A stretch of DNA of 64,000 bases from Candidatus Omnitrophota bacterium (GTDB taxonomy: Bacteria > Omnitrophota > Gorgyraeia > Gygaellales > Profunditerraquicolaceae): contig JBAZLM010000001.1 of assembly GCA_041650295.1 (NCBI GenBank), forward strand, positions 128,318 to 192,317, in the 5' to 3' direction. This document shows positions 2,637 to 36,747 of the stretch, piece after piece. Every line of letters begins with the position of its first letter. Within the stretch, counting starts at the first letter, position 1. A program made the translations under genes and the position numbers. Below the pieces are notes generated by a model. That model saw nothing but the letters and a program-made list of their open reading frames with translations. It ran no database searches and was not told where the DNA came from.

Positions 2637-2927
2637 GTGAACAAGAAAATTGAAAGAATTAGTAATATTTCCGTATTAGATATTGAATTAGCTACAAGGA
2701 AACTTACGGTATGGCGTAAAAAAAACGAAACCGACAGAGTGGTGGATGTATTGACCACTTTTTTTGTTGCACAAGATGCTCAAATTAAAGATATATATGG
2801 CTGTACGTTTATTCTTTCTAAGATTAAATCTGGCTGCAGGGTTAGCGTTGATTATGTGAAAGAAAAAGACGGTAGATTTATTGCTTCAAACATTGTAGTT
2901 ATAGTTAAATCACAGGGAAGGAGGTGA
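2637..2927 (+). CDS. small β-rich protein, paralog 3 of 4 (GTG start)
   Basis: Same motif (LSKIKSGCRVSVDYVKEKDGRFIASNIVVI); GTG at 2637. Confidence 0.35.
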   Translation: MNKKIERISNISVLDIELATRKLTVWRKKNETDRVVDVLTTFFVAQDAQIKDIYGCTFILSKIKSGCRVSVDYVKEKDGRFIASNIVVIVKSQGRR

Positions 2928-2934
2928 GGGGGAA

Positions 2935-3306
2935 ATGGTCAAAACAATGAAGTTCGCGTTAGCGTGTTTAGTGGTAGTCGGGCTAGTGGGGGTGGTGATT
3001 CCAGCTTTTGCTGAAGAAAAAGCGGAACCGCAGGTTACCTCGGTTTCAGGCGAGGTGGTTTCAGTCGACCTGGTAAAATCCGAAGTGGTGGTAAAGCAGC
3101 TAAAGGATATGGTTACTAGCACCTACGAGAATACCACGTTTTCTATCGCATCTGAAACAAAAATTAACAAAGGAGATGTTATCTTAAAGCTTTCTGATTT
3201 GAAGGTAGGAGATAAGGTAACGGTGAATTCTGCTACTGATGTATTAGGAAAGCAAAATGTTAAAAGCATTACCGTAGTAGTTCAAGAAGCAATACCAGCT
3301 AAATAA
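2935..3306 (+). CDS. secreted small β-rich protein, paralog 4 of 4 (signal peptide)
   Basis: N-terminal signal peptide MKFALACLVVVGLVGVVIPAFA; motif LKLSDLKVGDKVTVN...SITVVV; strong RBS GGAGG. Confidence 0.45.
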   Translation: MVKTMKFALACLVVVGLVGVVIPAFAEEKAEPQVTSVSGEVVSVDLVKSEVVVKQLKDMVTSTYENTTFSIASETKINKGDVILKLSDLKVGDKVTVNSATDVLGKQNVKSITVVVQEAIPAK

Positions 3307-34981: not shown

Positions 34982-35062
34982 GCGCGGGTGGTGGAATGGC
35001 AGACACGCAAGCATGAGGGGCTTGTGCCGAAAGGCTTGGGGGTTCAACTCCCCCCTCGCGCA
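34982..35062 (+). tRNA. tRNA-Leu (anticodon GAG), long variable arm
   Basis: Acceptor GCGCGGG/CTCGCGC+A; D-arm GTGGAATGGCAGAC; anticodon stem CAAGC/GCTTG with loop ATGAGGG; long variable arm; T-arm GGGGG-TTCAACT-CCCCC. Confidence 0.7.
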
Positions 35063-35072
35063 TTAAAAATTA

Positions 35073-35100
35073 TTGACTAAAGGTATTGGTATAGTAGAAT
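35073..35100 (+). promoter_or_regulatory. σ70-like promoter (TTGACT-16 nt-TAGAAT) upstream of the tRNA-Glu repeat region
   Basis: TTGACT at 35073-78 and TAGAAT at 35095-100; it is the same promoter architecture as the one before tRNA-Leu. Confidence 0.45.
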
Positions 35101-35117
35101 AACCTAAACTAATTTTT

Positions 35118-35316
35118 GGCCCCATCGTCCCGCTAGAGTTTAAAGTTTCTGCGGGAAGCCTGGCCGTGGGGTGGTATCATTGGTTTATTTAAATATTTTT
35201 GGCCCCATCGTCTTCCCGCCGGAGTCTTCTAAGGTGGGCGGGATCCCGCTAGAGTTTAAAGTTTTGGCGGGAAGCCTGGCCGTGGGGTGGTCTCATTAGT
35301 TTATTTAAATATTTTT
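35118..35316 (+). repeat. two direct partial copies of the tRNA-Glu 5' end (TTTTTGGCCCCATCGTC) interleaved with GC hairpin modules (CCCGC-UAGAGUUUAAAGUUU-GCGGG; AAGCCTGGCCGTGGGGTGG)
   Basis: Units 35118-35200 and 35201-35316 each begin with the first 12 nt of tRNA-Glu and share the block CCCGCTAGAGTTTAAAGTTT(C/T)(T/G)GCGGGAAGCCTGGCCGTGGGGTGGT(A/C)TCATT(G/A)GTTTATTTAAATATTTTT. Confidence 0.6.
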
Positions 35317-35391
35317 GGCCCCATCGTCTAGCCTGGCCTAGGACGTCAGCTTCTCAGGCTGTAAACACCGGTTCAAATCCGGTTGGGGCTA
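35317..35391 (+). tRNA. tRNA-Glu (anticodon CUC)
   Basis: Acceptor GGCCCCA/TGGGGCT+A (G1·U72); D-arm GTCT-AGCCTGGCCTA-GGAC (Glu-like); anticodon loop TTCTCAG; T-arm ACCGG-TTCAAAT-CCGGT; 75 nt. Confidence 0.65.
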
Positions 35392-35600
35392 ATATTTGTT
35401 AGCTTTATCCGGTTCTCCCGTCAGAGCATAAAATAAAGTGACGGGACTACGCCGCCAGACAGAAATGATAGTGGCTTGAAATCCGGTTGGGGCTAATATT
35501 TGTTAGCTTTATCCGGTTCTCCCGTCAATGCATAAAATAAAAAAGACGGGACTGCGCCGCTAGGTAGAAATGATAGCGGCTTGAAATCCGGTTGGGGCTA
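35392..35600 (+). repeat. two ~105-bp direct repeats each ending in a copy of the tRNA-Glu 3' end (GAAATCCGGTTGGGGCTA)
   Basis: 35392-35495 and 35496-35600 are ~90% identical; each contains a CCCGTCA..TGACGGG hairpin and terminates with the last 17 nt of the tRNA. Confidence 0.6.
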
Positions 35601-35817
35601 ATATTTTTTGTTACTTTGTAAGATTTAGCCAGAAAATTTAAAGTATTTAAAATTTCCCTTGCATTTTGCAAAGCTTTATAATATCATTAAAAACTAAGGG
35701 GGAGTAATGCGCAAAATTTTTTTATCTTCTAAGATATTCCAGTGCAGTGGTTAAGCTAATTGCCTGGATTTTTTTGTGCCCGGAATTTTAGGTATTATTT
35801 TTAATTATAATATTTTT

Positions 35818-36747
35818 ATGAAGGAGGCAGGCGTGAAAAATAAAATTGTTCTATTCATTTTAGTCAGTGCGTTTTTTAGTGGCATCTTAGGTTGTGATAA
35901 AATTAAGCAGATGACTGCTCCTAAATCAGAAGCAAAAGTTGTAGCGCAGGGGCCAGCTATTCAGCCCAGGGGACCGATTGTAGCCAAAATAAATAATATC
36001 GCTATTGGTTTAGACGATCTTAACGATGAAATAGAGTTTTATAATGCTAATGTTCCTGAAGAGAGCCCAGAGTTAAAAATTACTACTAGAGAACAAAAAA
36101 TAAACTATTTAAAAAATGAAGTTATCCGTCGTACTTTAATTTATCAGCAGGCTTTAGATAAAGGTTTAGATAGAAATGATGAGGTGCGCCAGGCAGTTGA
36201 GAAGAATAAACGAGAGATGATGGTGATGCAAAATGTGCAAGATATTGTTAAAAATATTACTGCTTCCTCTAAAGAAGTAGAGGATTATTACAATACCTAT
36301 AAGGATCAGCTAAAAGAACCCGAAGAGCGTAAGGTTTCTGAAATTGTGGTTGGCTCGGAACAAGAAGCCAAAGATCTTTTAGTGCAACTTTTGCAGGGCG
36401 CAAACTTTACTACTTTAGCTAAGGCTAATTCTAAAGCACCTAGTGCTGCAGATGGTGGGGTTATAGATTTTGTAGCCAAAGGTGTAAAATCGGAACAATT
36501 TGATGAAGTAGTTTTTGCTTCGACCTTAGACATAGGTGAGTTAAGTAGTATATTTAAGACTCCCGAAGGTTATAGTATCATTAGATTAGATGCTAAGCGT
36601 GGTGGTAAATTAAAACCGCTTTCTGAGATGTGGGATGATATTAATCGAGGGTTAGTTTATATGAAACAACAGCAGGCAATTGAAGAACTCGTCGGCAAAC
36701 TTTCTCGAGATGCTAAAATCGAGGTTTCTGAAGGGGAGATTAAATAA
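35818..36747 (+). CDS. PpiC-type (parvulin) peptidyl-prolyl isomerase lipoprotein (SurA/PrsA-like)
   Basis: Lipobox ILGCD; C-terminal parvulin domain (KVSEIVVGSEQEAKDLL..GGVIDFVAKG..TPEGYSIIRLD). An alternative GTG start at 35833, five nt after AGGAGG, is likely. Confidence 0.55.
   Translation: MKEAGVKNKIVLFILVSAFFSGILGCDKIKQMTAPKSEAKVVAQGPAIQPRGPIVAKINNIAIGLDDLNDEIEFYNANVPEESPELKITTREQKINYLKNEVIRRTLIYQQALDKGLDRNDEVRQAVEKNKREMMVMQNVQDIVKNITASSKEVEDYYNTYKDQLKEPEERKVSEIVVGSEQEAKDLLVQLLQGANFTTLAKANSKAPSAADGGVIDFVAKGVKSEQFDEVVFASTLDIGELSSIFKTPEGYSIIRLDAKRGGKLKPLSEMWDDINRGLVYMKQQQAIEELVGKLSRDAKIEVSEGEIK

Follow-up and report, generated by a model that had tools for sequence, protein, structure and literature searches.

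Hairpin-interrupted tRNA end pieces around a tRNA-Glu gene of Candidatus Omnitrophota, probable relics of tRNA-allele replacement

Mitochondrial double-hairpin elements are associated with endonuclease-driven duplication of gene fragments. Double-hairpin or repetitive hairpin elements are found in fungal and sponge mitochondria, and GC clusters in those of yeast (PMC2800124); the elements of Allomyces are credited in this source to Paquin et al. 2000. As a rule, a partial tRNA gene is the mark of an integrated element 9-120 kb in size (PMC9897764). A free-standing GIY-YIG homing endonuclease, SegB of phage T4, resides in a tRNA cluster, and GIY-YIG genes beside tRNA genes are associated with replacement of the tRNA region in a non-reciprocal manner and with its segmental amplification (PMC2330249, PMC13096335). 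Here we analyse a 64-kb stretch of contig JBAZLM010000001.1 from Candidatus Omnitrophota (the window), in which an intact tRNA-Glu(CUC) gene is flanked by two incomplete copies of its 5' end and two of its 3' end, all interrupted by GC-rich hairpins. The canonical insert is a twin-hairpin module (THM) of the form UCCCG-stem-loop-CGGGA, directly followed by a second UCCCG-stem-loop-CGGGA. On balance, we find it somewhat probable that the four units are relics left behind by the replacement of a tRNA allele or by a partial duplication, and that they were tandemly duplicated and are occupied by a phylum-wide double-hairpin element. The locus is a partly decayed example of this architecture, for which no published description of hairpin-split tRNA relics was found in the literature searched. 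Related loci from other genomes or metagenome contigs are given as L-numbers.

The intact tRNA-Glu (35317-35391, plus strand, no encoded CCA) is called by ARAGORN and by Rfam (51.9 bits), as a first-pass annotation of this DNA had proposed. The 18-mer ATTTTTGGCCCCATCGTC, which joins 6 nt of leader to tRNA-Glu positions 1-12, is present in three exact copies at 35112, 35195 and 35311, and the recurrence of the tRNA 5' end at 35118 and 35201 noted earlier is thus exact. The 17-mer AATCCGGTTGGGGCTAA from the tRNA 3' end likewise has three exact copies (35376, 35480 and 35585). No further copy of either with up to three mismatches was found in the 64-kb window, where 0.11-0.12 matches would be expected by chance and three copies arose in 0 of 100 shuffles. 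Two other shared segments, GAAGCCTGGCCGTGGGGTGGT and TTAGCTTTATCCGGTTCTCCCGTCA, are restricted to the tRNA-Glu locus within the window, and the same holds for the hairpin type itself, which was found nowhere else in the 64 kb.

All four units lie on the plus strand. The outer one upstream, 5' relic 1 (35118-35200), consists of tRNA positions 1-12 (35118-35129), a hairpin CCGC..GCGGGA (35130-35156), the D-loop piece AGCCTGGCC (35157-35165) and a linker (35166-35200). It is followed by 5' relic 2 (35201-35316; fold -44.6 kcal/mol, z -2.6), composed of tRNA 1-13 (35201-35213), a twin hairpin (35214-35272), tRNA 14-22 (35273-35281) and a linker that includes an ATTTTT leader (35282-35316). These units measure 83 and 116 nt, the second being the first plus an extra 33-nt hairpin. 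The insert of 5' relic 2 is formed by the adjacent hairpins TCCCGCC..GGCGGGA and TCCCGC..GCGGGA; the first hairpin is missing from 5' relic 1, which is 95% identical to the matching part of 5' relic 2. Downstream of the gene, 3' relic 1 (35392-35495) contains a spacer (35392-35408), CCGGTTC corresponding to tRNA 50-56 (35409-35415), a degenerate twin hairpin (35416-35478) and AAATCCGGTTGGGGCTA, corresponding to tRNA 57-73 (35479-35495). Repeat comparison identifies 3' relic 2 (35496-35600) as its tandem copy, with spacer (35496-35512), CCGGTTC (35513-35519), hairpin module (35520-35583) and a copy of tRNA 57-73 (35584-35600). CCGGTTC comprises the 5' strand of the T-stem and the start of the T-loop, and the second hairpin is degenerate in both 3' relics. 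The downstream units are 104-105 nt long and 87-95% identical, which confirms the earlier description of ~105-bp units repeating the last 17 nt of the tRNA. Since the units in the window share 87-95% identity with the hairpin loops included, they are of tandem origin.

Removal of the inserts in silico restores contiguous tRNA sequence. Without 35214-35272, 5' relic 2 reads GGCCCCATCGTCT+AGCCTGGCC, which is GGCCCCATCGTCTAGCCTGGCC or exactly tRNA 1-22, and the 3' relics without 35416-35478 or 35520-35583 read CCGGTTC+AAATCCGGTTGGGGCTA, exactly tRNA 50-73. The cut points are U13/A14 in the D-loop and C56/A57 in the T-loop. Because the AGCCTGGCC D-loop piece and CCGGTTC flank the hairpins, these are insertions inside tRNA-derived sequence and no substitutes for a tRNA body. 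The first-pass annotation had recognised the GC hairpins behind the 5' copies but placed them where the body should be, overlooking the D-loop piece behind them; it had likewise seen the repeated 17-nt 3' piece but understated its extent, which is at least 17-20 nt plus the preceding copy of CCGGTTC.

That excision restores exact tRNA segments at loop positions, as with archaeal non-canonical introns, would suit exons of split or intron-containing tRNA genes from whose RNA the module is removed. This explanation is extremely unlikely. Excision of single modules gave a complete tRNA in 0 of 208 cases, and excision of all modules gave one degenerate tRNA-Met pseudo-copy beside an intact gene; since a full functional tRNA is never restored, the pieces are not intron-bearing genes. 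Moreover, an intact copy is always adjacent, 0 of the 147 tRNAs recognised by ARAGORN contained a THM, and Rfam, searched at E<=1-10 with the window and the canonical units, returned no intron or ribozyme match, the bulge-helix-bulge geometry not being formally modelled.

The two 3' relics fold better than shuffled sequences (z -2.9 for 3' relic 1 and -3.25 for 3' relic 2), each as a closed acceptor-like helix plus two hairpins. Over 52 nt, covering the 3' piece, the spacer and CCGGTTC, they are identical, and their differences are concentrated in the hairpin loops. In the window, AGCTTTA in the spacer of 3' relic 1 can pair 7/7 with TGGGGCT of the acceptor 3' strand; this is an exception, since spacers in general showed no enrichment of a 5' acceptor-like partner strand (3.7 pairs observed versus 3.5 in the null). 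A longer array than that of the window occurs at L183, where four tandem 3' units with two alternating T-stem types follow tRNA-Leu(CAG). The tyrT gene of E. coli reportedly has distal repeats of 178 bp, each with the tRNA-Tyr 3' end (Egan & Landy 1978; Rossi et al. 1981). The 3' units of the window resemble them as tandem downstream units that each end in a tRNA 3' terminus (AAATCCGGTTGGGGCTA here), a resemblance of layout only; tyrT is not known to have a hairpin module in the T-loop or a 5' counterpart, its units are of another size, and it is a single locus and not a lineage-wide feature.

To place the insert in a wider context, metagenomes were scanned with the pattern GTYY-TCCCG..CGGGATCCCG..CGGGA-A, which yielded at least 120 loci; in the pattern, 5 bp at the outer end of each stem are fixed together with the flanking GTYY/AA, and the matches are not a random sample. 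Among the matches listed, at least 11 tRNA identities (Val, Thr, Met, Arg, Leu, Glu, Pro, His, Ala, Ser and Asp) have a THM in T-loop context on their downstream side, at a distance of 4-67 nt, and each of these modules is followed by an acceptor 3' strand resembling that of the neighbouring tRNA. It also occurs in the D-loop of tRNA-Glu 5' pieces and in the anticodon loop (35/36) of tRNA-Glu(UUC) pieces. The insert sites are precise (13/14, 35/36 or 56/57), and the extent of the 3' relics varies, with a start anywhere from position 22 to 53. Further copies lie at intergenic sites without a tRNA, such as between rnfA and rnfB and at the tips of long hairpins. The THM is a double-hairpin repeat that occurs throughout Omnitrophota, both where a tRNA copy is redundant or fragmentary and at some other intergenic sites, and of the earlier suggestion of a tRNA-targeting miniature element a conserved module placed exactly in the D-loop and T-loop of the pieces has stood. 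The copies between rnfA and rnfB are those of L126, L128, L145, L159 and L174; further intergenic positions without a tRNA are found at L109, L124, L130, L133, L180 and L188 as well as at L086, L101, L120 and L142. These positions are conserved, and the module overlaps no Rfam family at them. The L120 contig additionally carries a group I intron inside its 23S rRNA gene (22-284; Rfam, 72 bits).

In the stems of the THM, 93% of cells are paired and pairs 6-8 vary by double changes. Pair 6, which lies outside the fixed pairs, is CG, AU or UA in 37/37 sequences, and the stem covariation score of 0.304 compares with 0.089 in shuffles (0/500). Wobbles on the tRNA-sense strand amount to 41 G·U versus 10 A·C, a bias suggesting that it is the sense strand that folds, either as RNA or as single-stranded DNA. 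Copies at different loci of one contig have a similarity of 0.67-0.81, compared with a random-pair mean of 0.67; since modules of the same contig are not especially alike, they are old, with maintained stems, and are not fresh transposon copies. Conserved, covarying stems with free loops are shared with dispersed hairpin repeats, as is presence or absence at orthologous sites, here between species. The module has many contexts across metagenome contigs and a single locus in the 64-kb window.

As the closest analogue of the insert we would name the mitochondrial double-hairpin or repetitive hairpin elements. Like the THM, they consist of paired, GC-rich hairpins within an AT-rich genome, the stems being conserved and the loops variable, and they occupy intergenic or dispensable RNA sites with neither an encoded transposase nor a known function. 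Unlike them, the THM resides on a bacterial chromosome, belongs to a different sequence family and is placed precisely in the D-, anticodon or T-loop of tRNA relics. With REP/BIME and other bacterial palindromic repeats it shares intergenic GC-rich hairpins that are often paired and strand-biased, but no RAYT-like transposase was found, the window holds one THM locus in 64 kb, and the tRNA-loop context differs. Two types of transposition were considered and dropped: a transposon with an 8-bp target duplication, because the spacers lack conserved ends, and an insertion of the IS91 or IS200/IS605 type, for which the GTTC/CTTG flanks are suggestive but biased by the pattern and into which the D-loop sites do not fit. 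Rfam searches at permissive thresholds of the window, 20 module loci without tRNA and 7 canonical loci returned only tRNAs and chance matches.

Classically, a directly repeated tRNA 3' end betrays the integration of a mobile element (PMC9897764), and the units could in principle be scars of successive tyrosine-integrase insertions at the tRNA 3' end, the elements having been deleted to leave attL/attR cores. As in integration-derived partial tRNAs, a complete tRNA stands beside partial end copies, and the relic may come from another allele, which would fit elements carrying a replacement 3' part. We nevertheless judge this origin very improbable, and the doubts about an attL/attR model raised in the first-pass annotation were justified. 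No integrase, transposase or GIY-YIG gene lies within ~13 kb of the tRNA-Glu, and among the matches listed from the at least 120 loci no transposase or integrase is a recurrent neighbour of the THM, the only recurrent ones being GIY-YIG genes (11 loci), gyrA, glmS and rnf genes. Whereas integration-derived copies enclose an element, the spacers here span 4-67 nt in 41 cases, and the inter-copy segment of the window comprises only ~85 nt of spacer and hairpins. Duplicated 5' ends, inserts in the anticodon loop and relics whose T-loop is interrupted midway by a hairpin module are not accounted for by att sites. Viral contigs gave six twin-hairpin matches, all chance matches in GC-rich coding sequence without a tRNA, and when a canonical locus was compared with phage and plasmid records by BLAST, the match was confined to its tRNA-Glu part.

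The relics are pieces of other tRNA alleles. In its T-arm plus acceptor strand, a relic can be identical or nearly so to a functional tRNA of another contig: the relic of L179 equals the tRNA-Met of L099 (18/18), that of L033 the tRNA-Glu of L002/L004 (18/18), that of L193 the tRNA-Pro of L148 (18/18), that of L114 the tRNA-Pro of L193 (13/13) and that of L032 the tRNA-Glu of L067 (13/13). As the relic of L193 differs from the tRNA-Pro of L114 by 1 mismatch in 18, two Pro alleles are reciprocally arranged at these two loci. L003 and L006 combine a tRNA with a CGAG/CTCG T-stem with a relic of the CCGG type, which is the usual type of their clade in the PPIase tree. The tRNA of L002 is of the CCGG type and is followed by an inner relic of the CTCG type and an outer, more decayed CCGG relic, and L034 carries a GGCCCCA 5' relic beside a GGCGCTA tRNA. 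Across 41 units, the 3' relics differ from the adjacent tRNA at 44% and 36% of positions in the two T-stem strands, at 16% in the acceptor strand and at 7% for the discriminator, a pattern in line with how variable these parts are in the tRNA family. Within the relic, both T-stem strands still pair, with at least 4/5 pairs in 28/41 units. The T-stem differences together with this internal pairing are explained by descent of the relics from real tRNA alleles, and it is the low variation of acceptor stems between alleles that makes the acceptor strands look conserved. The simplest reading would be that the working allele was replaced repeatedly while displaced ends were retained. An element in the T-loop that carries a replacement 3' end was considered and dropped, because T-stems pair within the relic and within the tRNA yet differ between them.

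These matches also bear on the view that the units are no more than decayed tandem paralogues of tRNA-Glu, or duplications by slippage, and that their hairpins have no special significance. The relic pairs of the window are clearly tandem duplicates, and full-length hairpin-bearing pseudo-copies exist beside intact genes elsewhere (L108, L189). However, the hairpins form a conserved sequence family across tRNA identities and genomes, the insert positions 13/14, 35/36 and 56/57 are precise, and the relics match other alleles rather than the neighbouring tRNA, so that this view appears improbable. What stands of the earlier idea of decayed tandem copies is that the pieces are genuine tRNA-Glu ends; full diverged paralogues they are not.

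Homologues of the PPIase encoded downstream come from Candidatus Omnitrophota, and a profile search with one genome per species gave 77 loci from this phylum. A tRNA-Glu(CUC) lies upstream of the PPIase gene in 48/77, so that the locus is orthologous. With the window counted, relics are present at this locus in at least 13/49 cases: 3' relics in the window, L002, L003, L004, L006, L016, L032, L033, L040 and L041, and 5' relics in the window, L003, L032, L034 and L037. Relics with modules are scattered over the PPIase tree, with presence and absence between species (~13/49 loci), and the comparison of related genomes called for in the first-pass annotation therefore reveals a patchy distribution. 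In better-preserved relatives the insert is the canonical twin hairpin, and at L029 the same 3' construction follows a tRNA-Val and ends in the Val acceptor strand. That the repeats are a collapse or expansion artefact of assembly is barely conceivable: the window does stem from a short-read metagenome assembly, but the same architecture recurs in many independent assemblies and projects, which rules such an artefact out, and the copies differ at specific positions.

Several features of the relics vary between relatives. The tRNA-Glu of the window has no encoded CCA, which is encoded by several orthologues (L011, L012, L015 and L034 among those compared). CCA follows some 3' relics although the adjacent tRNA has none (L003, L032, L179, L198 and L105); overall, encoded CCA is similarly frequent in relics (7/41) and tRNAs (5/41). 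L016 and L041, downstream of tRNA-Glu, and L186 and L189, in tRNA-Leu pseudo-copies, have other single GC-rich hairpins at equivalent relic positions, and the single-hairpin types found in some relics are GCCTGCC..GGCAGGC, TCCTGC..GCAGGA and GCCCCC..GGGGGC. More than one hairpin family may therefore behave like the twin hairpin.

On the 5' side, a candidate agent is still encoded at the orthologous locus L037. Its order is promoter, 5' relic (tRNA 1-12, THM, 13-31), an open reading frame (ORF) of 89 aa and the intact tRNA-Glu. This ORF (2837-3106) is a GIY-YIG catalytic domain (Pfam, E 8e-17) whose last seven codons and stop lie inside the tRNA. The GIY-YIG proteins comprise ~88 aa with the catalytic domain only and without a DNA-binding domain, and the ORF ends inside the tRNA D-arm. 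The same cassette is located upstream of tRNA-Glu(UUC) on several contigs, sometimes in tandem, and upstream of tRNA-Asp, Ser and Leu, and in front of each one lies a 5' relic of the tRNA concerned that carries hairpins. GIY-YIG is also the gene family that recurs beside THMs, at 11 of the loci listed. L037 and 14 other loci have a GIY-YIG ORF beside a duplicated tRNA fragment; such wedged ORFs were seen at L037, L146, L181, L147, L178, L186, L125, L131, L165, L176, L187 and L194. Across loci, 5' relic and tRNA are separated by a linker of 33 to 290 nt (35 nt in the window), a range that fits a progressive loss of the nuclease ORF. The closest analogue of the nuclease would be a free-standing GIY-YIG enzyme in a tRNA cluster. 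T4 SegB shares with the Omnitrophota cassettes a GIY-YIG gene beside tRNA genes and differs from the ~88-aa proteins, which are predicted to be catalytic domain only with an ORF ending in the tRNA D-arm, and of which the window has none.

The putative σ70-like promoter proposed by the first-pass annotation, TTGACT-16-TAGAAT (35073-35100, plus strand), is present, and the same box is found upstream in relatives. In relatives without 5' relics (L006), the tRNA itself follows a TTGACT..TA(G/T)A(A/G)T box at a distance of 16-18 nt, and at L003 and L032 this box lies upstream of the 5' relic. In the window, the outer 5' relic begins 17 nt past the -10 box, the distance of the tRNA start in relic-free relatives. 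Due to this ancestral distance from a conserved promoter, the outer 5' relic marks where the ancestral tRNA started. No second promoter-like site was found between the box at 35073-35100 and the tRNA-Glu. Since the only promoter-like site is upstream of them, the 5' relics must be transcribed, and by this prediction the tRNA-Glu must now be transcribed through a relic leader of ~200 nt.

We propose that an ancestral tRNA-Glu would have been situated directly behind the conserved promoter, at ~35118, and that a replacement copy of all or most of the gene came to lie inside or beside the old one. The old 5' end (1-22) would have been left upstream and the old 3' end (50-73) downstream, and each relic, with a THM in its former loop, would then have been duplicated once in tandem by unequal recombination. 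The likely agent on the 5' side would be a nuclease cassette with a GIY-YIG catalytic domain only, still intact at L037 and since decayed in the window. The order of events, the role of the nuclease and the route of the THM into the loops are inferred. Four results go beyond the first-pass annotation: the hairpins interrupt contiguous tRNA sequence, the architecture is phylum-wide and involves many tRNA identities, the relics correspond to other alleles, and a GIY-YIG cassette occupies the equivalent 5' site of a relative.

Several observations weigh against this scheme of replacement, duplication and occupation. A tblastn search found no GIY-YIG gene in the window, and in the translated short 5' linkers remnants were limited to weak hints in L003 and L129 (YY..IL, VYII), with nothing convincing in the window; in consequence, the nuclease link for the 5' relics of the window rests on relatives. 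For the 3' relics, neither a cargo nor an agent was found. Outer stem pairs and the GTYY/AA flanks are conserved by construction, because the scan pattern fixes them. A hairpin insert in nearly every relic suggests that relic formation and insertion are coupled, which the model does not explain. That modules of the same contig resemble each other no more than random pairs do speaks against recent transposition and suggests that the stems have long been maintained. Finally, the excess of G·U over A·C (41 versus 10) and, in the window, an intact 17-nt 3' piece beside diverged loops are also expected of a functional RNA.

A functional RNA, in the manner of the co-transcribed structured small RNAs suggested in the first-pass annotation, would consist of modules co-transcribed with the tRNA, in which an end piece is joined to a twin hairpin that binds protein or RNA. 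Possible roles would be to guide or buffer pre-tRNA processing, as a t-element- or minihelix-like substrate for RNase P/Z or the CCA-adding enzyme, to serve as a decoy, or to stabilise the transcript. In agreement with such a role, transcription from the sole promoter-like site would run through the 5' units, the stems covary (0.304 versus 0.089) with the wobble excess on the sense strand, conservation of the acceptor 3' strand and discriminator far exceeds that of the spacers, the 3' units of the window fold as an acceptor-like helix with two hairpins (z -2.9 and -3.25), and the THMs are not recent copies of each other. We nevertheless consider it rather improbable, though still a live rival. 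The units are patchy (~13/49 orthologous loci), relics can mismatch the resident tRNA (L034, L032), their start varies from position 22 to 53, the 5' partner strand is generally absent (3.7 versus 3.5 in the null), and the module also occupies unrelated intergenic sites such as rnfA-rnfB. The pairing of the T-stems is accounted for by descent from real alleles.

The coupling of hairpins to relics, the old and maintained modules, the strand bias and the divergence confined to loops motivate a further, more tentative extension, which we hold possible and short of probable. The hairpin-split pieces may be working parts of undescribed selfish cassettes for tRNA-allele replacement in Omnitrophota, in which the end fragments would serve as portable homology arms or as immunity-bearing decoys around a complete replacement tRNA. 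Behind some of these cassettes might stand GIY-YIG nucleases with a catalytic domain only, for whose expression the tRNA promoter would have been captured, and the twin hairpin might be a new structured RNA or single-stranded-DNA motif through which a dedicated factor recognises a displaced copy and marks or neutralises it.

In the surroundings, a tRNA-Leu(GAG) (34982-35062, plus strand; ARAGORN and Rfam) precedes the promoter, and the neighbouring genes comprise pyrG, purF, a beta-lactamase-like gene, the PPIase gene, tad pilus genes and glutamate synthase. At 35708-35830 lies a frameshifted, truncated remnant (MREHLGFLK.SS.VVKVAAWIFLF...; MRKIFLSSKIFQCSG*) of a small membrane-protein gene, which in most relatives is located between tRNA-Glu and the PPIase gene. 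The PPIase ORF (323 aa from GTG 35776) probably starts near ATG 35818, because its relatives have 303-305 aa. In L002-L007 and L011, the gene of a 606-aa multi-pass membrane protein, which the window does not have, separates tRNA-Glu from the PPIase gene, and L003 has an additional 146-aa gene. The gap of 2-3 kb between tRNA and PPIase gene in L002-L007 was considered as a mobile element; this was rejected, as the gap is the 606-aa membrane protein.

If the replacement history proposed here is true, tRNA genes of a major uncultivated phylum would have been overwritten repeatedly by incoming alleles, with a layered record of each event, and a double-hairpin element would mark every displaced tRNA copy. 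The loci would then hold a readable history of horizontal tRNA-gene turnover, provide a bacterial counterpart to the hairpin-plus-endonuclease dynamics of mitochondria and offer a candidate for a new nuclease and hairpin system. For annotators they are a warning, since gene finders either ignore or mis-call the tRNA fragments and the long structured leaders present at such loci.

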